Below, piece after piece: positions 5,286 through 64,000 of a stretch of DNA of 64,000 bases. The notes under the pieces are model-generated. The model did no database searches. It saw only the letters and a list, made by a program, of their open reading frames with translations, and was not told the DNA's origin. Position 1 is the stretch's first letter; each line of letters starts with the position of its first letter. Location of the stretch: positions 80,642 to 144,641 of the forward strand of contig CAYZJA010000001.1 of assembly GCA_964479005.1 (NCBI GenBank), given 5' to 3'. This DNA comes from an uncultured Candidatus Saccharibacteria bacterium. Its GTDB lineage: Bacteria > Patescibacteriota > Minisyncoccia > UBA6257. The position numbers and the translations under genes are program-made.

Positions 5286-5999
5286 ATGAAATTAGATAAA
5301 AAAGTAGCTTTAGTAACAGGCGGTTCAAATGGCATTGGAAAAGCTATTGCCCAGAGATTTTTAGATGAAGGAGCAAAGGTTATAATCTTTGATATTGTAA
5401 AACCAGATTATGATGTGAATTTTTATAAAGTTGATATAAGTAAAGAGGAACAAATCAGAAAAGCGTTTGAGAAAATTGAAGAATTAGATATTGTTGTTAA
5501 TAACGCTGGAATTTATTTTCAAGCATCTGTTGAAGAAACATCAGGCGAACAATTAGACAAAATGATGGATGTAAACTTTAAAGGAGCATATTTGATTTCT
5601 AAATACGCGCTTCCTTTGGTTAGAAAAAACAAAGGAAATATTATCAATATTTCTTCTGCCATTGGAATTGCACCTGAGCCAGGATCTCCAGCTTATTGTT
5701 CATCTAAAGCAGCGATAATAATGCTTACTAAATGTATGGCTCAGGAATATGCTGCAGAAGGAATAAGAGTAAATGTGATATTACCAGGACCTATAGATAC
5801 TCCATTATTGAGAAGAGTTCTTTCTTCTGATGAAGCGATTCATAAGTATGCTGAGTTAAATCCCATGAGAAGAATTGGAAAACCTCAAGATGTTGCAAAT
5901 GTGGCAGTCTTTTTGGCTTCAGATGAAGCAGGTTATGTAACTGGTGGAATATATTCAGTGGATGGCGGAGAATCCAGTTCTAGCCGATATTCAAAATAA
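5286..5999 (+). CDS. short-chain dehydrogenase/reductase (SDR)
   Basis: TGGSNGIGKAIA, NNAG, YCSSKAA catalytic motif. Confidence 0.9.
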   Translation: MKLDKKVALVTGGSNGIGKAIAQRFLDEGAKVIIFDIVKPDYDVNFYKVDISKEEQIRKAFEKIEELDIVVNNAGIYFQASVEETSGEQLDKMMDVNFKGAYLISKYALPLVRKNKGNIINISSAIGIAPEPGSPAYCSSKAAIIMLTKCMAQEYAAEGIRVNVILPGPIDTPLLRRVLSSDEAIHKYAELNPMRRIGKPQDVANVAVFLASDEAGYVTGGIYSVDGGESSSSRYSK

Positions 6000-6046
6000 G
6001 AACCTGCTTCGCAGAACCTTGTTTTTCATTTCATTCAAAATAACAA
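5996..6046 (+). repeat. dispersed copy of the AAGAACCTTG repeat family
   Basis: aataagaacctgcttcgcagaaccttgtttttcatttcattcaaaataa begins on the SDR stop codon. Related to copies at 23991, 27404-27527 (reverse orientation) and 30450. Confidence 0.6.
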
Positions 6047-6424
6047 TTGAAAAATATTATGCTTAAATTAACAATTTTTGAAGCATTATTGATTACCCAC
6101 GTTCTAGTAGATTGGATATTTCAATGGAAGTGGGAGGCGATGAATAAATCTAAAAAATGGTTGCCTTTATTTTTTCATTGCGCAGTTTATACAATAGGTT
6201 TTATTCCAGTGTTTTTGATATATAAAATTAATTTAATTTGGTTAATTTTATTGTTTGTTTCTCATGTTGTTTTTGACAGACGGAAATTTGAGGTATGGTT
6301 GTTAGAAAGTTTTAAGGGAATCACCAAAAAAGACACACCCGAATCTCTTTGGAGGATATTGTTGATTGGAACTGACCAAATTTTACATATTGTAATTTTA
6401 ACATTGGTAGTTATATTTAATTAA
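6047..6424 (+). CDS. DUF3307-like integral membrane protein
   Basis: HVLVDWIFQ ... HVVFDR motifs in a multi-TM protein. Start is ambiguous (TTG 6047 or ATG 6059). Confidence 0.5.
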   Translation: MKNIMLKLTIFEALLITHVLVDWIFQWKWEAMNKSKKWLPLFFHCAVYTIGFIPVFLIYKINLIWLILLFVSHVVFDRRKFEVWLLESFKGITKKDTPESLWRILLIGTDQILHIVILTLVVIFN

Positions 6425-6577: not shown

Positions 6578-7363
6578 TTGTATATGTCCCAATATTACAA
6601 TTCACAAAGAACGCATGGATTATATGATTCTGCTTCAAAAGAGCCGTTTAAAATTTCGCGGTCAAAAATTGATTTGTTTTTGCAATGTCCGCGATGTTTT
6701 TATTTGGACAGAAAATTGGGAGTCGCGCGGCCGCCAGGATTTCCATTTGCTTTAAATAGCGCTGTTGATACTTTACTAAAACAGGAATTTGATATTTATC
6801 GCGCTAAAGGCGCAAAACATCCTTTTATGGAAACTTATAAGGTTGATGCTGTTCCTTTTAAACATGAAAAGCTTGAAGAATGGCGTGATGCAAGAACAAG
6901 GGGAATAACTTATCTCCACAAACCAACAGATTTATTAATTACTGGTGGCATTGATGATATTTGGGTAAATTCTAAAGGAGAATTAATTATTGTTGATTAC
7001 AAGGCAACATCAAAGAACGGAGAAGTGAGTTTAGACGCTGATTGGCAGATTAGCTATAAAAGACAAATGGAAATATATCAGTGGTTGTTTAGAAAAAACG
7101 GATTTAAAGTTTCTGATACTGGATATTTTGTTTATTGTAACGGTAAAACAGATGTAAAAGTTTTTGATAATAAATTGGAATTTGATGTCACTTTAATAGC
7201 ATATAAAGGTGATGATTCTTGGATAGAAAAAACTATTTCTGATATTCATAAATGTTTGAATAATGATAAAATTCCAAAAGCAGACGCTGATTGTGATTAT
7301 TGTAACTATGTTGAATCAGTAAAATCTAAAACAATAGAATCTAAAAACGGAACATTGTTTTAG
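6578..7363 (+). CDS. PD-(D/E)XK (Cas4/RecB-like) nuclease family protein
   Basis: CPRCFYL near the N-terminus, GGIDDIW...IIVDYKAT (D...D/ExK core), C-terminal CDYCNY. Confidence 0.65.
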   Translation: MYMSQYYNSQRTHGLYDSASKEPFKISRSKIDLFLQCPRCFYLDRKLGVARPPGFPFALNSAVDTLLKQEFDIYRAKGAKHPFMETYKVDAVPFKHEKLEEWRDARTRGITYLHKPTDLLITGGIDDIWVNSKGELIIVDYKATSKNGEVSLDADWQISYKRQMEIYQWLFRKNGFKVSDTGYFVYCNGKTDVKVFDNKLEFDVTLIAYKGDDSWIEKTISDIHKCLNNDKIPKADADCDYCNYVESVKSKTIESKNGTLF

Positions 7364-7368
7364 AAAAT

Positions 7369-7848
7369 ATGAAAAAACAAAATCTTTTAATTGGTTCAAT
7401 AGTTATTCTGATATTGGTCTTAGTAGGAGTTATTGGGTATTTTATTATTGGACAAGAAAAAACCATGACAGTAAAGATATTTTTTGGAAATATTAAAGAA
7501 GATCCAGAAGTTCTAAATTGCGAGAAAGTTTATTCTGTAGAAAGGCAGGTTCTTAAAAGCAAAGCAATAATTCAAGCATTAGAAGAACTTTTAAAAGGTC
7601 CAACTGTAGAGGAACAAGAAAAAGGATATTTAACTAATATTAATTCTGGCGTGAATATTAATAATTTGATTGTAAAAAATAATGTAGCTAGAGTTGATTT
7701 TGATGAACAATTAGAATTTCAAGTAGGAGGGTCTTGTCGGGTAATGGCTATTCGTTCTCAAATTACTGGAACTCTAGTACAATCTTCTGAAATTAATGAT
7801 GTTATAATTTCTATTAATGGTCGTATTGAAGATATTTTACAACCTTAA
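7369..7848 (+). CDS. GerMN domain-containing lipoprotein/membrane-anchored protein
   Basis: N-terminal TM segment, then ALEELLKGPT..EKGYLT...VARVDF...GGSC...QITGTL pattern. Confidence 0.6.
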   Translation: MKKQNLLIGSIVILILVLVGVIGYFIIGQEKTMTVKIFFGNIKEDPEVLNCEKVYSVERQVLKSKAIIQALEELLKGPTVEEQEKGYLTNINSGVNINNLIVKNNVARVDFDEQLEFQVGGSCRVMAIRSQITGTLVQSSEINDVIISINGRIEDILQP

Positions 7849-12361: not shown

Positions 12362-12503
12362 AATGAAGATGAATGAAGATAAAATTGTCAACTTTTCAAT
12401 ATATAAAGAGGCGTTTGGTTTAGAACTGAACGTCTTTTTCATTAACAAGGACTAGCTTTACTAAATTTATGCCTTTGGCATTTGTCCTTATTTGGTGTGG
12501 GGG

Positions 12504-12531
12504 TTGACAAATTATTTTTCTTTGCTATACT
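12504..12531 (+). promoter_or_regulatory. promoter TTGACA-16-TGcTATACT (extended -10)
   Basis: ttgaca aattatttttctttgc tatact. Near-identical context to the 54247 promoter. Confidence 0.6.
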
Positions 12532-12535
12532 AAAG

Positions 12536-12595
12536 ATGCCGTTGTTTTGAGATATGTAGCTTGCTATATATCAATGGGCAGCGGCATTTTTTTTT
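12536..12595 (+). ncRNA. ~60-nt hairpin RNA, family member 1 (unknown function)
   Basis: Outer stem atgccgttg/cagcggcat, inner stem gatatgtag/ctatatatc with loop cttg, then a run of 9 T. Homologous to 54279-54342. Confidence 0.45.
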
Positions 12596-23965: not shown

Positions 23966-24424
23966 ATGGGTATTTTGAATATTTTTAAAAATAAGAACCT
24001 TTTTCGTTCTACTCAAAAGAACCTTGTTTCTCGTGATGCTCGAAATAAGAAAATCGAAGAAAAAAAGGTTGAGAAAGAGAAAACCAAAAAGCCAGTAGCA
24101 GAAGAAAAGAAAGTTGAAATAAAAGGGAAGATTGTTTTAGAAGGATCCTCTTCGGCATTGTTGATTAATCCTTATTTGAGCGAAAAGTCTACTAGTTTAA
24201 GAGAGCAAGAAAATAAATATATTTTTAAAGTTAGCCCTAGAGCGACAAAAAACGAAATAAAAAAACTTTTAGAAAATATTTACAATGTGGAGGTAACCAA
24301 GATTAATGTAATAAATACCCCTGCTAAGCCTAAAAGATGGAGACAGAAAAAAAGATATTTTAACAGGAGTAAAAAAATGATGGTTACCATAAAGAAAGGC
24401 CAAAAAATAGAATTAGGAATATGA
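23966..24424 (+). CDS. rplW: 50S ribosomal protein L23 with ~55-aa N-terminal Lys-rich extension (start uncertain)
   Basis: The L23 core starts near LLINPYLSEKSTSL...KYIFKV...NKIKKLLENIYNVEV. The upstream part of the ORF contains a repeat-family copy. Confidence 0.85.
   Translation: MGILNIFKNKNLFRSTQKNLVSRDARNKKIEEKKVEKEKTKKPVAEEKKVEIKGKIVLEGSSSALLINPYLSEKSTSLREQENKYIFKVSPRATKNEIKKLLENIYNVEVTKINVINTPAKPKRWRQKKRYFNRSKKMMVTIKKGQKIELGI
23991..24049 (+). repeat. AAGAACCTTG-family repeat copy inside the rplW 5' region
   Basis: ataagaacctttttcgttctactcaaaagaaccttgtttctcgtgatgctcgaaataag. The second half aligns to the unit ataagaaccttgttattcgcctttggctcataataag. Confidence 0.55.
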
Positions 24425-27203: not shown

Positions 27204-27404
27204 ATGGTAAAAGCAAAAGAATTACGATTAAAACCCGAAGAGGAATTAAATCAATTACTGTCTGAATCCCAAAAGAAATTACGGGAATTGAGGTTTAATT
27301 TGGCTAGCGGAAAAGTTAAAAACGTACGCACCATTCGTGTTTTGAAAAAGAACATTGCGAGAATTTTAACTATTTTAAATGAAGAAAATGAAAATCAACT
27401 CTAA
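27204..27404 (+). CDS. rpmC: 50S ribosomal protein L29
   Basis: KAKELRLKPEEELNQLL...LRELRFNLASGKVKN. Confidence 0.95.
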   Translation: MVKAKELRLKPEEELNQLLSESQKKLRELRFNLASGKVKNVRTIRVLKKNIARILTILNEENENQL

Positions 27405-27527
27405 TTATGAGCCAAAGGCGAATAACAAGGTTCTTATTATGAGCAAAGCAAATAACAAGGTTCTTATTATGAGCCAAAGGCGAATAACAAGGTTCTTATT
27501 ATGAGCAAAGCAAATAACAAGGTTCTT
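27404..27527 (+). repeat. tandem array A-B-A-B (32+30+32+30 nt) between rpmC and rpsQ
   Basis: A = attatgagccaaaggcgaataacaaggttctt (27404, 27466). B = attatgagcaaagcaaataacaaggttctt (27436, 27498). The two A copies are identical, as are the two B copies. Confidence 0.95.
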
Positions 27528-27529
27528 AT

Positions 27530-27838
27530 ATGGAAAAACAAATTAAAAAACAAAAAAGGATATTAAAAGGAGAAGTTATATCAGACAAGATGGATAAAAC
27601 TGTTGTAGTTAAGGTTTCCAGATTGAAAGTGCATCCGAAATATAAGAAGCGCTATAAAATTACCAAGCGTTTTAAAGCCCATGATGAGAAGAATGAGTGT
27701 CGTGTAGGCGATAAAGTAATGATTGAAGAAACAAGGCCTCTATCTAAAGGGAAAAGATGGAAAGTGAAACATAAAGAACAAATAACAAATAATAAGAAAG
27801 AAGATGATTCAACCGCAGACAATATTAAAAGTAATTGA
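27530..27838 (+). CDS. rpsQ: 30S ribosomal protein S17
   Basis: [19 protein letters not shown] ... [23 protein letters not shown]. The C-terminal tail overlaps rplN. Confidence 0.95.
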
Positions 27839-30253: not shown

Positions 30254-30658
30254 ATGAATAAAAATAGCAAAAGAGAGCAAAGAGAAAAAAGGCATAGAAG
30301 AGTAAGGGCAAAGATCCATGGAACAAAAGATAGGCCCCGTCTTTGTATTTTTAAATCCAATAAGCATATTTACGCTCAAATTATTAATGATGATAAGGGA
30401 TTTACACTCGTTTTTGCTTCAGATTTAGAAATCAAAGATTCAAAAAAAGATAAGAACCTTGCTTCGCAAGAACCTTGTTATTCGCCTTTGGCTCATAATA
30501 AAAAAATTAATTTAGCTCAAAAAGTTGGGGAATTAATAGCTAAGAGGGCAAAAGATAAAAAAATAACGAAAATTCTTTTTGACAGAGGTGGATTTAAATA
30601 TCACGGTCAAGTGAAAACTTTAGCTGATGAAGCCAGAAAACACGGATTACAGTTTTAA
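30254..30658 (+). CDS. rplR: 50S ribosomal protein L18 carrying an internal ~15-aa insertion
   Basis: [32 protein letters not shown] ... [26 protein letters not shown]. The insertion [15 protein letters not shown] is encoded by a repeat copy. Confidence 0.95.
30450..30499 (+). repeat. AAGAACCTTG-family repeat copy in frame inside rplR
   Basis: 30469-30499 aagaaccttgttattcgcctttggctcataa is the exact reverse complement of ttatgagccaaaggcgaataacaaggttctt in tandem unit A (27406-27436). It is preceded by a half-unit with hairpin cttgc-ttc-gcaag. Confidence 0.9.
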
Positions 30659-34671: not shown

Positions 34672-34732
34672 GACAAAAGAATAAAAATATAGAAAATAAA
34701 AATATAGAAATTATAGAAAAGGAGATTAAGAA

Positions 34733-34813
34733 ATGAAAAAAAAGAAAGGAAAAAAGGAAAAAAGAATCAAAGAATCAAAGAATCAAAGAATCAAAGAAAA
34801 TGATACCGTCTGA
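34733..34813 (+). CDS. possible 26-aa Lys-rich peptide containing an 8-nt tandem repeat
   Basis: SD aaaaggag 8 nt upstream. MKKKKGKKEKRIKESKNQRIKENDTV. Confidence 0.3.
   Translation: MKKKKGKKEKRIKESKNQRIKENDTV
34761..34798 (+). repeat. 8-nt simple repeat (aaagaatc) x ~4.75
   Basis: aaagaatc aaagaatc aaagaatc aaagaatc aaagaa. Confidence 0.95.
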
Positions 34814-40517: not shown

Positions 40518-40524
40518 ATCTATT

Positions 40525-40945
40525 GACGATTGAACCTATAAGCCGAATTCTGTATCCTGTTAAACAGGACGATAGTCATTTATCTAGCCCTGAAATTACT
40601 CTCAGGGTCAAGCGGCCACTTTCTGACAAATGTCAGAACACGAGCCTTGCACCCAGTAAGGATTTAGCCGTTTCATTCTTGAAATTGCTTTCAAGACTCA
40701 CCCTAATTAAAAAATAATTAGGGTGTTTTGAACTTTTCAGTTCAAAACGTCTCTGTTCGCACCTCTATTCCAGTTGTAAATCCGTCATTAGCGTTACCGC
40801 TAAGAGGCAAAAACTGGAGCGATAGCTGTTAGCTATTACCTTTTACCAACTTTGTTTTAGGCAAAATTGGTGGTGTTCGGACTTTCCTCCCCGCCTAAGT
40901 TTTGCGAACAAAATTTTGGCGGGGTAACTACCCAGTTCAATCGAG
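40525..40945 (-). ncRNA. rnpB: RNase P RNA, bacterial type A
   Basis: The minus strand reads ggcggggaggaaagtccgaacacc (P4 5' strand), ggtgcgaacagagacg, ggctaaatcc..gggtgcaaggc, and acagaattcggcttatagg (P4 3' strand). P1 is cgattgaac/gttcaatcg. Confidence 0.93.
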
Positions 40946-53851: not shown

Positions 53852-53868
53852 CTGGTAATTTCAAGTTC

Positions 53869-53896
53869 TTGACTAATAGTTAAAGGTTGTTATACT
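53869..53896 (+). promoter_or_regulatory. promoter TTGACT-16-TATACT
   Basis: ttgact aatagttaaaggttgt tatact. Confidence 0.55.
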
Positions 53897-54217: not shown

Positions 54218-54246
54218 TTTATACATAAAGTTATCCACAATGGGAC

Positions 54247-54274
54247 TTGACAAGATTTAAATGTTTGCTATACT
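54247..54274 (+). promoter_or_regulatory. promoter TTGACA-16-TGcTATACT
   Basis: gggacttgaca agatttaaatgtttgc tatact. Paralogous to the promoter at 12504. Confidence 0.6.
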
Positions 54275-54278
54275 ACGG

Positions 54279-54342
54279 ATGCTGTCGTTTGGAAGTATTT
54301 GTTAGCTTGCTAATGGATATGGAAGAGTGGCAGCATTTTTTT
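54279..54342 (+). ncRNA. ~60-nt hairpin RNA, family member 2
   Basis: Outer stem atgctgtc/ggcagcat, apical ttag-cttg-ctaa, then T7. Shares the gatgcYgt...tagcttgcta...ggcagcRgcattttttt framework with 12536-12595. Confidence 0.45.
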
Positions 54343-59382: not shown

Positions 59383-61131
59383 ATGAATAAACAATTATTC
59401 TCTAAAACGATTTCACTTTTCTTAGTTTTTTCTTTGGTGTTCGTAGGTGTTTCAATATTTTCACCAAATAATATTGAAGCTAAAGGACAGAAACCAAATA
59501 ACAAAATATCAATTTGTCATAGAACTAGTTCTGCTACTAATCCTTGGAATGTAATTAATGTTAGTGTTAATGCTCAAGATGCTCACTTAGCTCATGGAGA
59601 TTTTCTTTATGAAGGTAGTTATCCAGTGAATTCTAAAGAAGCAGAGGAATGGTGTGGCATGACTAGATATACTTGTAATGAAAGTACTTGGCAATGTGTA
59701 ATTGATAACCAAGGTCAATATTCAAGTTATGATGATTGTTCAACTGTTTGTCAGGAACCAATGGCAACTGTAACAATTTGTAAATATGACGAAGAAAGGA
59801 ATCCTTTAAGTGGATGGAAAATGATTTTGAAAGGGGATTTGCAAGACCAAGTAACTGTTTTTCCTGATGGGTCAGCATATTTGTCAGGAGATTTACCATT
59901 AGAAGATTATTTATTAATGGCTTCTGGTCAATATGTTTATAGGCCTGGAACTTTAGGGGCTGAATATTCTGATGCTGGCTATACTAAGAGGAATTGTCCA
60001 GGAGATGCTACTTATTTATGTAGTGGTCCCTATACCCCATGGTTTAATGTTTTTGATATTATAGGTATTCATAAAGGATGGTTGGGGATTATGGTTAATG
60101 ACGCCGCAACTAATTGGGGTTCTTACTTTAACTCTGCTCATACTTATGCTCTGGGATATCCTAATTATAGTGGTTCATTATCTTTTACAATTAAAGATGA
60201 TGTGTATAGTGATAATTCAGGACAATTAAATGTTGATATTTATAAAGGATATACTGGGGAGACAGATGAAAATGGTTGTATAACCTTTAATGATGTTCCT
60301 TTGGAAACTTATTCTCTTGAGGAAATTCTTAAAGATGGATGGCAAAATGTTAGTGGTTTAGGACAGATTGTTATTGATGAATCTCAAGAAACTTTTGATG
60401 TGATTAATAGTGAAATTAAAAGCGAAAAAGAACTAGCATGCATAAATTCAGGTGGCACAGTTGGAACAGGTATATGCTGCAAAAGTGTAGAAGGTTTTCC
60501 AAATGATTGTGCTACAGGAGCCTGCGGTTGTTCTGCAGGAGATAGCCATGAAGTTCAGGTTTGTAATTGTCCAGCAGGCAAATGTTTTGATGGAAATTCC
60601 TGCGTAACAAAATGTGAAGAAGGAATTAATCTTCTTAAAAACGGTAGTTTCGAATATCCGGAAGTAACTAATACAAGCAAATGGCAGTTATTTCCATCAG
60701 GGACAGCTCTACTTGAATGGGTAGTTGGATGGGTTAGCGCTGCTCCATCAGACCCTCCAACAATTGAAATACAGAAAGGCGTAGTAGTTTCTCCTAGTAA
60801 TGGACTTCAAAGCATTGAATTAGATTCAGAAGCTCCAACCTATATTTCTCAAGCAGTTAATACAGAATCTGGCTATGGATATAAATTAAGCTTTGATTTT
60901 GCAGCCAGGCCTAATACTTCAGAAGAAGATAATAAATTAGAGGTTTGGGCTGATAGTATTCTTAAAGATAGTATTAGCAGCAATACATCTTGGCAAACAA
61001 AAACATATAATTTTAATGCTACTTCTAACCTTACGGAAATCAAATTCGTGGATATAGGAATTCCTAATACCGATTCAATGGGTACATTATTAGATAATGT
61101 TAAATTAGAATGTGTTCCGCCGGTTCTGTAA
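59383..61131 (+). CDS. secreted modular protein (ICHRT...HGD motif, prealbumin/Cna-B-like module, Cys-rich linker, DUF642-like lectin module)
   Basis: Signal peptide. KISICHRTSSATNPWNVINVSVNAQDAHLAHGD. VTICKYDEERNPLSGWKMILKG. NGSFEYPEV...SIELDS...YKLSFDF...LLDNVKLECV. Confidence 0.7.
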   Translation: MNKQLFSKTISLFLVFSLVFVGVSIFSPNNIEAKGQKPNNKISICHRTSSATNPWNVINVSVNAQDAHLAHGDFLYEGSYPVNSKEAEEWCGMTRYTCNESTWQCVIDNQGQYSSYDDCSTVCQEPMATVTICKYDEERNPLSGWKMILKGDLQDQVTVFPDGSAYLSGDLPLEDYLLMASGQYVYRPGTLGAEYSDAGYTKRNCPGDATYLCSGPYTPWFNVFDIIGIHKGWLGIMVNDAATNWGSYFNSAHTYALGYPNYSGSLSFTIKDDVYSDNSGQLNVDIYKGYTGETDENGCITFNDVPLETYSLEEILKDGWQNVSGLGQIVIDESQETFDVINSEIKSEKELACINSGGTVGTGICCKSVEGFPNDCATGACGCSAGDSHEVQVCNCPAGKCFDGNSCVTKCEEGINLLKNGSFEYPEVTNTSKWQLFPSGTALLEWVVGWVSAAPSDPPTIEIQKGVVVSPSNGLQSIELDSEAPTYISQAVNTESGYGYKLSFDFAARPNTSEEDNKLEVWADSILKDSISSNTSWQTKTYNFNATSNLTEIKFVDIGIPNTDSMGTLLDNVKLECVPPVL

Positions 61132-61237: not shown

Positions 61238-64000
61238 ATGAAAAAACAATTTTTCTCTAAAACATTTTCAATTTTCTTGGCACTTTCTTTTGTACTTTCT
61301 AATAGCGCAATGTTAGTGCCATTACAAGCTGAAGCTTGTGAGGAAGAAATATGCGAAGACGTTATTGTGGTAAGTAATATAGAAGATAAGGTTTTTGATA
61401 TTGCAGAAACTCTTCCCGGTGAAGCAGCTGTTCTTGCTTGGGATGATCATCCGGCATGGACAGCGTATATTGAAGGCGCAAATTGGATTTGGAAGACAGA
61501 ATATGTAGAAAATCCTGATCAAGACGAAACATATATATTTAAAAAAGATTTTGATATTGTTGGCATTCCAGATTCTGCAACATTAAAAGTTGCAACTGAT
61601 AATTCGTATAGTGTTTGGGTTAACAATGTTTTGATTGGAGAAGTTATAACTGAAGATAATCACAGTTCAACAACCCAAGATCAATATAATAATATCGTTG
61701 ACTTTCATACCGGTTCAAATGAAATTAAATTTGAAGTTAAAAACTGGGCAGGAAATGCGTCACCGAAATTAAATCCTGCAGGTCTTTTGTATAGACTTGA
61801 GATTGTAAGATCTTCTTGTGAACCTCAATGTATACCTCAATCTTCTATAGAAACAGACTGTACTAATGGTTTAGATGATGACTGCGATGGTTTTATTGAT
61901 AGTGAAGATTCTGATTGTCAGATGTTAATAATGGCTTCTAAAGTAATTTGTGATAATGAATCAGATTTACCTAATTGGGGGACAGGATCTGGAGTTGACT
62001 ATCCTTCATATAACATTGATCAAAACACAGCTTCGGATTATGTAGCTGAACATTCTGGTTGTTATTTAGCTTCTAATTGGTTTTTTCAATGGGGACAACA
62101 AGGTTCTGATGATTTTGGAAAAGACTTTTATGGAGAAGCTGGCAATGGCTACACTACTTTTGGGCCAACAAATGAAAATGGAGTAGCTAGTACAACAGTG
62201 GATTCTGTTACCGGTAGTTATTTGGAATTAAGGGAAGTTCTGCAGCAAGGTTATATTCCTTTTACGTATGACCAATCACATAAATCTAATGATAATAATA
62301 TTTCTGCAGAATTTTATTGCCACAATGATATTCTCAATTATGATAACTGGGATTATATAAAAAATCCTCAATTAGGAATTACTCATTATTGCGTTGGATT
62401 TAATGCATTAATCGAACAAGAAGAACCAGAACCTGTTTGTGGAAATGAAATTATAGAAACTGGTGAACAATGTGATCCACCTTCAACCACTGCTCCTAAT
62501 TCTACTGATGAATATTTCTGTGACCAAAATTGTAATTTAGTTCCTATCTATCATTCTCTGGATGGTTGTCCAAAAAATCAAATCCTAGAATTTATTCAGT
62601 CTTATCAAATTCATTCAACTAGTACGACAGAAGTTATTATTCCTGTGAGTGGTAGCGATACATATAAGTTTGAAGTTAAAGGAACTTTTTATCCTACTCA
62701 AAATGGAAAAAATGAGAATTTCCTATCAGATGCCGCCTATACGACTGAAGATGGCTGGGTTTCAACTTCTACAAAATACGGAATTAAAGGCATACCACCT
62801 GATTATGCTGCCCATGCTTTATTAGGTGATTTAGGATTAGGGGCTGGAGTAATTAATTGGGGAGATTATGATTCTTCTCATGAATATGATTTCTCTTACA
62901 CAATTCCTTCAGGCGCTACTTCTACTCAATTTGTGATAGGTGATAGATGGGATAATTGGTTTATACCAGATGATATTAGTTGGAATAATCAAGGCGGAAT
63001 GAAAGATAATCTTGGAAATTTGACTTTAGATGTTTATGAGTGTAAGCCAATCCAAGCTAGATGTGATCCTAAGTTAGAATTAGTTATGAATGGCGATTTT
63101 GAGAGTCCTGAAGTGACTGATCTAGTAAAAAAATGGGGTATTTTTCCATCAGGGACAACCGATTTAGAATGGTTAATTAATTGGAGAGAAATTTGGCCTT
63201 CAGCACCAAAAATAGCAAATCTTGAAATTCAGAAAAGTTATTATACTCCAGTAATAGCTCCTGTAGTTCCTGGAGATCCAGATCAATATGCTGAGTTAGA
63301 TACTGATTGGCATGGTCCAGGTGGACCTTCTGGTGAACCAGCCTCAGTAGCTATTTCTCAAGATATTCCAACAATTATAGGGGAAACTTATAGATTAAGT
63401 TTTGATTTTTCACCACGACCATATACTGATTTAGAACAGAATCATTTAAAGGGTTTTGTTGATAGCGCTGAATTATTTGATATTTCTGCTGATGGTTCTG
63501 GTTTAACAGATACTTTATGGAATCAATATTCTGATAATTTTGTTGCTACAAGTTCAATAACAAACATTAAATTTACTGATTATGGTACACCAGACTCTTT
63601 AGGCACTTTCTTAGATAATGTTAGCGTAAGATGTGTTCCTCAGGACGAACCTACTATGTATCATTGTAATGAGGAATGGCAATGTATAGCAGATCCTGAA
63701 GGTGAATATAATACTGATAATTGTGACAATCAATGTATTAAACCTGGAACATCCACAGTTACTATTTGTAAATATAATGAACAAGAAGAACCTTTAAGAG
63801 GTTGGAAGATGATACTTAAAGGTGATAGGTATGATACAGTGCCTGTTTTTCCAGATGGGCAAAATTATTCTTCAAATCCTTTGCTATTAGGTGATTACTT
63901 AATTCAGGCTTCTGGTCAATATTTATATAGACCAGGAACACCTGGCGCTGAGTATTCTGATGCTGGCTATACTAAGAGGAATTGTCCAGGAGATGCTGAT
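61238..64000 (+). CDS. large secreted modular protein, 3' end outside window (not in ORF track because no stop is reached)
   Basis: Hand translation from ATG 61238 stays open for 921 codons to the window edge. Signal peptide, CTNGLDDDCDGFIDSEDSDC motif, DUF642-like module (NGDFESPEV...AELDTDW...YRLSFDF...LDNVSVRCV), then the ICKYNEQEEPLRGWKMILKG module. Confidence 0.75.
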   Translation, partial: MKKQFFSKTFSIFLALSFVLSNSAMLVPLQAEACEEEICEDVIVVSNIEDKVFDIAETLPGEAAVLAWDDHPAWTAYIEGANWIWKTEYVENPDQDETYIFKKDFDIVGIPDSATLKVATDNSYSVWVNNVLIGEVITEDNHSSTTQDQYNNIVDFHTGSNEIKFEVKNWAGNASPKLNPAGLLYRLEIVRSSCEPQCIPQSSIETDCTNGLDDDCDGFIDSEDSDCQMLIMASKVICDNESDLPNWGTGSGVDYPSYNIDQNTASDYVAEHSGCYLASNWFFQWGQQGSDDFGKDFYGEAGNGYTTFGPTNENGVASTTVDSVTGSYLELREVLQQGYIPFTYDQSHKSNDNNISAEFYCHNDILNYDNWDYIKNPQLGITHYCVGFNALIEQEEPEPVCGNEIIETGEQCDPPSTTAPNSTDEYFCDQNCNLVPIYHSLDGCPKNQILEFIQSYQIHSTSTTEVIIPVSGSDTYKFEVKGTFYPTQNGKNENFLSDAAYTTEDGWVSTSTKYGIKGIPPDYAAHALLGDLGLGAGVINWGDYDSSHEYDFSYTIPSGATSTQFVIGDRWDNWFIPDDISWNNQGGMKDNLGNLTLDVYECKPIQARCDPKLELVMNGDFESPEVTDLVKKWGIFPSGTTDLEWLINWREIWPSAPKIANLEIQKSYYTPVIAPVVPGDPDQYAELDTDWHGPGGPSGEPASVAISQDIPTIIGETYRLSFDFSPRPYTDLEQNHLKGFVDSAELFDISADGSGLTDTLWNQYSDNFVATSSITNIKFTDYGTPDSLGTFLDNVSVRCVPQDEPTMYHCNEEWQCIADPEGEYNTDNCDNQCIKPGTSTVTICKYNEQEEPLRGWKMILKGDRYDTVPVFPDGQNYSSNPLLLGDYLIQASGQYLYRPGTPGAEYSDAGYTKRNCPGDAD

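Follow-up and report, generated by a model that had tools for sequence, protein, structure and literature searches.

Insertion sequences (IS) of the IS200/IS605 family insert beside a short AT-rich motif without clear target duplication, with one strand active, and the miniature element described here, a two-hairpin repeat found in a stretch of an uncultured Candidatus Saccharibacteria genome (contig CAYZJA010000001.1; the 64,000-nt stretch as a whole is hereafter called the window), looks alike. A second point of reference is provided by repetitive extragenic palindromic (REP) sequences. An HUH enzyme supplied in trans is believed to process these repeats in the form of single-stranded hairpins (PMC3116915, PMC8266576, PMC3733652), and their hallmark is a conserved GTAG or CGTC tetranucleotide at one end of the palindrome (PMC3733652). 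Within the window, a tandem array lies between two ribosomal-protein genes, rpmC and rpsQ. We propose that this array is made of four tandem copies of one module, X, of a miniature non-coding two-hairpin element that is dispersed in this Patescibacteria genome and its relatives, a reading to which we assign a probability of roughly 0.7. The family is best read as a REP-like, MITE-like (MITE, a transposable element of miniature size with inverted repeats) or Rickettsia palindromic element (RPE)-like miniature element that acts as single-stranded DNA (ssDNA).

The array occupies positions 27406-27529, between the rpmC stop codon and the rpsQ ATG, and consists of four head-to-tail units of 32, 30, 32 and 30 nt. 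An earlier reading made from the letters alone (the sequence-only reading) had described a perfect A-B-A-B tandem repeat here, which is confirmed by Tandem Repeats Finder (27400-27529, period 62, 2.1 copies, 98% matches, score 253, with a second period of 30) and by a repeat search that returned a pair of 62-nt copies within the array (identity 100% and 98%). Each 62-mer joins a 32-nt unit A to a 30-nt unit B. The two copies of A, at 27404-27435 and 27466-27497 in the phase of that reading, show 0 mismatches. The 30-nt B units, which it had also called identical, differ in their last base, at the boundary between the array and the rpsQ ATG, and are otherwise the same. The perfect identity of the copies fits the recent duplication it proposed. 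Shuffling the window produced comparable matches, to the array or to its reverse-complement copies, in 0 of 100 trials.

The coordinates of the sequence-only reading are shifted by 2 nt in phase. Natural boundaries, derived from the empty site of relatives, give unit 1 (TATGAGCCAAAGGCGAATAACAAGGTTCTTAT, 32 nt, 27406-27437) and unit 3 (27468-27499, the same sequence with 0 mismatches) as module X variant A, and unit 2 (TATGAGCAAAGCAAATAACAAGGTTCTTAT, 30 nt, 27438-27467) and its copy, unit 4 (27500-27529), as variant B, all on the + strand. Unit 1, whose boundary is set by the empty site CTCTAAT/ATGG of the relatives L003 and L004, corresponds to hairpin 1 of the element, with a lower stem CTTATTAT/ATAACAAG and the apex GCC-AAA-GGC. 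Unit 4 ends at 27529 and the rpsQ ATG follows at 27530, so the last unit does adjoin the true start, as had been said. The flanking genes belong to a fused S10-spc ribosomal-protein operon on the + strand of the AT-rich window (about 32% G+C). Upstream, rpmC (ribosomal protein L29, 66 aa; 27204-27404, +; Pfam Ribosomal_L29, same contig) ends in a TAA stop at 27402-27404 that together with the T at 27405 forms the target TAAT preceding the insertion. Downstream, rpsQ (S17, 102 aa; 27530-27838, +) has a start that matches that of array-less relatives. The most over-represented 10-mer of the window is AGAACCTTGT/ACAAGGTTCT, with 8 copies against 0.18 expected.

When all copies are compared, the full element measures about 50-60 nt and reads TAYGAGC-loop-GCGARTAACAA / GGTTCT-(variable hairpin Y)-A / GGTTCTTAT. 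Module X is the first of these segments, TAYGAGC-loop-GCGARTAACAA; it is followed by GGTTCT, the variable palindrome Y and A-GGTTCTTAT. The two ends of the element, TAYGAGC... and ...GGTTCTTAT, are not inverted copies of one another. In the window, the array holds X modules only, in two variants. A covariance model, R1, built from an alignment of 54 elements that contains no window sequence, yields five significant matches in the window at four sites, scoring 44.8-65.9 bits, and nothing else significant; two of the five lie in the array (27396-27469, 52.3 bits, over unit 1, and 27490-27531, 44.8 bits, over unit 4). The model also finds further matches in relatives.

Both hairpins covary in the 54-element alignment. 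In total, 87.7% of cells are paired, compared with 33-45% when the partners are slid, and 112 cells are double changes, compared with 3-24 in the slid controls; 0 of 500 shuffles match the observed values. Hairpin 1 alternates among TTAT/ATAA, TTAC/GTAA, TTTC/GAAA and TTGT/ACAA. The loop motifs are strongly one-stranded: GCGN(N)AGC occurs on the forward strand of 32 X and 37 Y modules and on the reverse strand of 1 and 0, and CGNAG is found in 76 Y modules forward and 0 reverse. The GCGNAGC/GCGNNAGC mini-hairpin has exceptional stability as DNA but far less as RNA; it is known from sites of single-strand priming, and nearest-neighbour parameters miss its stability (PMC13037366). Orientation relative to flanking genes is random (24 copies same/same, 23 anti/anti), and the majority of copies are intergenic or at gene ends. 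Because the hairpins covary, the loop motifs (GCGNAGC/GCGNNAGC, CGNAG) are confined to one strand and gene orientation is random, the element would appear to work as single-stranded DNA. We infer that the hairpin is selected on one DNA strand, rather than as an RNA element or as a symmetric duplex site.

The segment GAAGCGAGTAACAAGGT with a GAA-loop hairpin (e.g. L069 232-290, -) resembles the universal 3' region of 16S rRNA, where GAAGTCGTAACAAGGT is followed by helix 45 with its GGAA loop; the identity, around position 1500 of the rRNA, amounts to 10 nt (GTAACAAGGT). This resemblance is probably due to chance, since a 10-mer match to a 1.5-kb rRNA has a rough chance of about 0.15.

The comparison with relatives, which were retrieved via homologues of ribosomal protein L18, shows the array to be an insertion. 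Their flanking genes are 96-97% (L003), 93-94% (L004), 84-93% (L011) and 84-89% (L133) identical to those of the window; among the homologues listed, the nearest named one is labelled Candidatus Pacebacteria. In L003 and L004 the junction reads ...aatcaactcTAAtATG..., with a single base separating stop and start (ctcTAAtATG), so that the junction is as tight as the sequence-only reading had supposed. Relative to these two, the window has 124 extra bases, 27406-27529, after CTCTAAT and before ATGG. The more distant L011 carries one complete X+Y element at the same junction (TTATGAGCAAAGCGAATAACAAGGTTCT-GCGAATGAAACAAGC-AGGTTCTTAT-ATG), in frame with S17, and L133 likewise carries one complete element, with X variant A and Y (TTATGAGCCAAAGGCGAATAACAAGGTTCT-TGTAAAACA-AGGTTCTTAT-ATG). 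The rpmC-rpsQ site is thus filled in the window, L011 and L133 and empty in the closest relatives. This distribution implies that insertion has recurred at a hot spot or that the element was lost precisely. Among all sequence fetched, the Y-less junction AACAAGGTTCTTAT occurs in the source strain only.

Insertion into this operon had been called unusual, a judgement that does not hold in this lineage. Family members sit inside the 3' end of rpmC in L003, at the rplD-rplW junction in L004, and at the rplP-rpmC junction in L004 (two tandem units) and L011. In L003, 16 nt of the host are nearly duplicated (TATTTTAAATGAAAAA / TATTTTAAACGAAAAA) around the rpmC element (7175-7250), which alters the C-terminus of L29 (71 aa rather than 66 aa). 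Elsewhere in L011, the rplN-rplX junction (2694-2922) is a 230-nt hairpin-rich spacer, compared with 10 nt in the window, and its S17 (119 aa) and L5 (205 aa) are also longer.

The other window copies lie outside the array at three sites, all on the reverse strand. A complete element, combining X variant A with a Y of TGC-GAA-GCA, occupies 30450-30497 (-) in rplR (R1 64 bits at 30448-30507). It forms a 48-nt in-frame insertion that adds 16 aa and is missing from L003 and L004; accordingly, L18 has 134 aa here and 118 aa in nearly all of the best 120 homologues listed. The 16 residues fall in a loop segment that varies in length among solved uL18 structures. This site includes an exact 32-nt reverse complement of unit A (30468-30499), with similarity extending to 37 nt at 97%, and so accounts for one of the two inverted copies that the sequence-only reading had picked out; the other, a match to B over 35 nt at 77% in the 5' region of rplW, is equally real. 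There, the 5' coding extension of the gene contains a complete but diverged element (23991-24044, -; R1 61.3 bits at 23989-24054), an in-frame insertion of about 54 nt that is missing from L003 and L004, and L23 has 152 aa compared with 134 aa in L003. The third, at 5994-6049 (-; R1 65.9 bits), is a complete element with a degenerate X and a Y of GC-GAA-GC; it lies where a short-chain dehydrogenase gene ends (3'), and the TAA stop of that gene is part of the element end ATAAGAACC. A possible member of the family, degenerate in sequence (CAAGTTCT-TGACTAATAGTTA-AAGGTTGTTAT; 53855-53895, +), begins 3 nt past tRNA-Val and scores below the significance threshold (R1 14.8 bits, E = 0.26).

Two other L18 homologues, P0016 (131 aa; L011 5178-5216) and P0018 (144 aa; L009 1172-1249), have in-frame inserts of another kind, located a few codons upstream of where the rplR insert lies in the window. 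In DNA these are long perfect palindromes (TTAACCCTGTTGAAT...ATTCAACAGGGTTAA and ACCCCCACACC...GGTGTGGGGGT), and therefore a second hairpin family also invades the L18 gene.

The family extends far beyond this lineage. A scan of GTDB, one genome per species, with the fixed pattern AACAAGGTTCT-N(3-33)-AGGTTCTTAT returned at least 120 loci, against about 8 matches expected by chance on our own arithmetic with equal base frequencies. The hosts among the matches listed include many Clostridia of the gut and rumen (Acutalibacteraceae, Ruminococcaceae, Oscillospiraceae, Fimenecus) and many Patescibacteria (Saccharibacteria, Shapiro-, Nealson-, Blackburn- and Berkelbacteria, Parcubacteria), as well as Desantisbacteria, an Oceanispirochaeta, several metagenome-assembled genomes labelled Gammaproteobacteria and one Pacearchaeota bin; only L016 and L037, which have no hairpin, look like chance matches. 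Two features outside the search pattern recur: the inter-repeat segment, Y, is palindromic in 104 of 135 matches, and a canonical X hairpin stands upstream in 73 of the 135. The core, TAYGAGC..GCGARTAACAAGGTTCT-hairpin-AGGTTCTTAT, is near-identical in gut Clostridia, many Patescibacteria lineages and other phyla, and the X hairpin can be the same in Clostridia and in the candidate phyla radiation (CPR), as with ATTATGAGCAAAGCGAATAACAAGGTTCT in L014 and L011. Tandem arrays are frequent in the family (L021, L069, L083, L090, L120, L122, L134, L137, L140). What had been taken for a local tandem repeat with a possible translational role is instead a derivative of a dispersed two-hairpin family that spans many phyla.

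In gut Clostridia the element lies inside or beside tRNA-Arg(CCT) genes, in the D-arm region (GGATAT/AATAAACC; L069 160-940, L021 630-880). L069 has an intact tRNA-Arg and tandem copies interrupted by a 50-nt element, and L021 has an intact tRNA-Arg and a duplicate of its 5' part (about 44 nt) bearing two elements.

Other collections gave little. BLAST searches of plasmid and phage collections with a consensus dimer found no match, and a scan of IMG/VR found one genuine copy, its remaining matches being coincidental phage coding sequence. No Rfam 15 family, ribosomal-protein leaders included, matched the element at gathering score across 16 loci and the whole window, and scans of three regions at permissive E-values returned noise only. 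Literature searches with the literal sequences retrieved unrelated primers only, and keyword searches on CPR or Saccharibacteria repeats yielded no description of the element. By inspection of the consensus we also rejected a hammerhead core (no CUGA box), domain 5 of group II introns (interior unpaired), integron attC R boxes, the tRNA T-arm and a DNA-uptake sequence.

Three clean pairs of filled and empty sites indicate how the element may insert. Written in element orientation, they are rpmC-rpsQ (CTCTAAT/ATGG), rplR (TTTTTAT/CTTTT) and Clostridial tRNA-Arg(CCT) (GGTTTATTAT/ATCC). At all three the element lies 3' of (T/A)AT and ends in TTAT, an arrangement equally readable as a 2-nt AT duplication. 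The element is probably mobilised in trans by an enzyme that recognises ssDNA hairpins, by analogy with REP/RAYT (REP-associated tyrosine transposase) or IS200/IS605 systems. Such a mechanism would explain the seamless empty sites, and tandem arrays would arise because the TTAT end of each element recreates the target. At the rpmC-rpsQ junction, a single X+Y element would have come first, as seen in L133 and L011. Its Y may then have been lost by slippage between the flanking GGTTCT direct repeats, a second X variant gained, and the 62-nt pair of X variants A and B recently duplicated through slipped-strand mispairing or unequal recombination. Since Y stands between such repeats, its deletion by slippage and a later doubling of the 62-nt pair offer the simplest route to the array. 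The element itself presumably has no dedicated cellular function.

Several observations sit uneasily with this account. ORF (open reading frame) clustering within 2.5 kb of the 120 loci listed found no recurrent protein family, transposase or RAYT gene. The copy count covers the 64-kb window of a 551-kb genome. The four window sites have no replication-strand bias (one forward and three reverse, on a + strand whose GC skew is positive), which is a misfit with a strict IS608-like preference for the lagging-strand template. A host duplication of about 16 nt flanks the rpmC insertion of L003, and duplications of about 44 nt accompany the element in the Clostridial tRNA-Arg cases; neither is predicted by a simple cut-and-paste model. 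Near-identity across phyla is unusual for REP-like repeats. Finally, the count of four units is read in one assembly only, as the window and L001/L145 are the same contig.

A tentative extension, which we regard as possible though less likely than not, is that the family is an undescribed class of ultra-small (50-60 nt) ssDNA mobile element that inserts and excises seamlessly at (T)TAT sites by an unrecognised mechanism, possibly preferring heavily transcribed DNA, with the array as a local offshoot. Three of the four window sites fall in the 9.3-kb rpsJ-rplO stretch, for which our own post hoc arithmetic gives a binomial p of about 0.01 on a small sample. Together with the insertions in Clostridial tRNA genes, this clustering hints at a preference for heavily transcribed DNA.

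Short-read assemblers mishandle repeats, and one unlikely explanation is that the array was expanded or created by the assembler. Logan contigs do break within it, and the four-unit count is readable in one assembly only. Yet the Logan assemblies of three separate sequencing runs start exactly at the last B unit and continue into rpsQ, which places the junction of unit B and rpsQ in three independent assemblies, and one of them (L146) ends within the rplR insert. Contigs that break at both repeat copies are the pattern expected of a de Bruijn assembler at a true repeat. The rplR insert is also present in L002, from a different JGI (Joint Genome Institute) sample, the copy at 5994-6049 in L143, a separate assembly from another JGI sample, and relatives bear the element at the same junction. 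The array is real, and only its exact copy number is provisional.

Locally, a structured 125-nt spacer (27405-27529, of which 124 nt are insertion) replaces the 1-nt TAAtATG coupling junction. The array adds decoy ATGs whose AU-rich context is that of the true start, and the mini-ORFs with ATGA stop/start overlaps that the sequence-only reading described are present in the sequence and in the ORF list (11 aa from 27407, 21 aa from 27439, and a 21-aa ORF at 27501-27566). It is conceivable, if improbable and somewhat more so than an assembly error, that the array is a cis-acting translational device, either a relay of mini-ORFs or a structured leader, that tunes S17 or couples it to L29. The overlaps do connect L29 to the units, and the RNA fold of the array is moderately better than that of shuffles (z = -2.96), which is not so for its DNA fold under nearest-neighbour parameters. 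However, the last ORF of the relay (27501-27566, 21 codons) runs 36 nt into rpsQ out of frame, so that ribosomes relayed by termination and reinitiation would overshoot the S17 start. In the closest relatives S17 is expressed across a tight junction with no such device, ORF content differs in relatives with the element at the same site, and the element also occurs inverted and within coding regions. No Rfam leader matches it, and the genome makes no use of Shine-Dalgarno sequences. An effect of the array on S17 translation or coupling had been suggested, but a mini-ORF relay is not supported and the chain of mini-ORFs is incidental: the element is inverted at three other sites of the window, and relatives with an element at this junction do not conserve the ORFs.

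None of 35 gene starts examined in the window has a Shine-Dalgarno sequence, the upstream regions being simply A/T-rich. We accordingly rejected the AAGG before the rpsQ ATG as a Shine-Dalgarno sequence, because genes in the window lack such sequences. A promoter and terminator scan predicted nothing in the array.

A shade less probable still is a DNA motif that benefits the host, such as a signal for ssDNA priming or for exclusion of single-stranded-DNA-binding protein (SSB), a sequence for DNA uptake or a site of recombination. In favour of this, conservation of the core extends across phyla, its GCGNAGC mini-hairpins resemble those of ssDNA priming sites (PMC13037366), and natural competence is reported for some Patescibacteria (PMC10187176). 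Against this, the element is polymorphic in presence among strains 93-97% identical, disrupts tRNA and protein-coding genes, and occurs at a low density of four sites in 64 kb. Polymorphism, gene disruption and low density are better explained by selfish insertion than by a required signal.

On a single transcript, the two A units could pair with the rplR insert, which lies about 3 kb downstream, in a duplex of 32-37 bp; the complementarity is perfect across 32 nt and 97% across 37 nt. That this duplex functions as a long-range RNase III site or as a switch between S17 and L18 is very improbable. The complementarity follows automatically from insertion of the same element in opposite orientations, nothing suggests selection for pairing, and both partners are missing from the closest relatives. 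A purely local variable-number tandem repeat, arising by slippage duplication of native intergenic sequence with no mobile element, is no better placed and is refuted as the sole explanation: it would fit the perfect head-to-tail pair of 62-nt units, and slippage is still required for the last duplication step, but the closest relatives have no intergenic sequence there to duplicate (TAAtATG), and the unit, far from being confined to one locus as in a simple tandem repeat, recurs exactly over 32 nt in rplR, and copies at the level of the model occur at three other sites of the window and in many other genomes.

The window holds further repeats. A 58-nt direct repeat (12498-12555 and 54241-54298, 72% identical) has a promoter-like TTGACA-17 nt-TATACT followed by a conserved leader, and the intergenic sequence after the map gene (34680-34800) contains short perfect tandem repeats (AATAAAAATATAGAA x2.1, AAAGAATC x4.8). 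The second most over-represented 10-mer, GGTTCAATAG/CTATTGAACC, has 5 copies against 0.12 expected (at 7392, 35964, 53189 and two more sites) and sits inside a 27-nt repeat, TTAATTGGTTCAATAGTTATTCTGATA. Two paralogous genes some 2.5-4 kb apart are indicated by a 243-nt direct repeat (59767-60009 and 63755-63997, 76% identity), together with additional matches at 60679/63131 and 61072/63593. A match to class A RNase P RNA at 40523-40943 (-), with 110 bits against a gathering score of 100, spans 421 nt compared with 367 model positions, and this RNA may carry insertions.

On the reading we prefer, in which the array derives from a dispersed two-hairpin element, a CPR genome of roughly 0.55 Mb tolerates selfish repeats in essential genes (L18 and L23 here, L29/S17 in relatives), and these inserts vary between strains that are 93-97% identical. 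Ribosomal-protein phylogenomics and annotation are affected by the resulting extra peptide segments, false N-terminal extensions, spurious small ORFs and broken short-read assemblies. If cross-phylum conservation reflects a shared mobilising activity, the element offers a defined substrate for finding a new system of ssDNA-hairpin transposition or recombination; the family could also provide a natural marker, and possibly a tool, for organisms that are hard to manipulate genetically.

Among known systems, REP sequences and their composites (bacterial interspersed mosaic elements, BIMEs, and REPIN-RAYT systems) are short, imperfect, multicopy palindromes, located for the most part in intergenic sequence or where genes end, often clustered or tandem and non-coding, and the element shares these traits (PMC3116915, PMC8266576, PMC3733652). 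It is a multicopy short imperfect palindrome, with two covarying hairpins and at least 120 loci. In place of a GTAG or CGTC tag, the element alignment has the invariant flanks AACAAGGTTCT and AGGTTCTTAT, and a look at the ORFs up to 2.5 kb away from the 120 loci listed turned up no RAYT gene. Nor is its location strictly extragenic, as two of the four window sites are in-frame (rplR, rplW) and a third supplies the stop of a gene. The element further differs from REPs in its GGTTCT and TTAT flanks, in its two modules with a hypervariable Y and in its in-frame copies inside essential genes. Unlike REPs, which are species- or genus-specific, it is nearly the same in different phyla. The terminal inverted repeats matching an autonomous IS that define MITEs are missing, and no parent IS was found; as for a fixed target duplication, the three clean pairs fit a 2-nt AT duplication or none.

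The IS200/IS605 family (IS608, ISDra2) and its miniature derivatives (PMC6006769) resemble the element in having subterminal hairpins, no terminal inverted repeats and seamless empty sites. Hairpins without inverted repeats are present here too, and the left flank is (T/A)AT at three sites, too few to define a motif; no candidate Y1 HUH transposase (TnpA) was seen beside the 120 loci listed. The element is far smaller than known derivatives, has no evident lagging-strand-template bias and is sometimes accompanied by long host duplications. At the level of structure, both hairpins have loops and closing pairs that agree on one strand with the DNA mini-hairpin motif GCGNAGC/GCGNNAGC (PMC13037366). 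That motif is a structural feature of oligonucleotides and phage origins, whereas in the element it is part of a larger conserved repeat. Elhai and colleagues reportedly described, in 2008, very small dispersed hairpin-like repeats of tens of nucleotides in filamentous cyanobacteria, nested or in tandem, inside and between conserved genes. These repeats resemble the element in size and nesting and differ from it in sequence, host range and architecture. RPEs, too, are hairpin repeats found in-frame in genes of a small reduced genome and tolerated as extra peptide (PMC10969869). They measure about 100-150 bp and are limited to Rickettsia, whereas the element measures 50-60 nt and is modular, tandem-prone and cross-phylum; the two share no sequence similarity, and the resemblance is one of behaviour. 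We therefore file the rpmC-rpsQ array as a derived local form of the miniature non-autonomous hairpin repeats.

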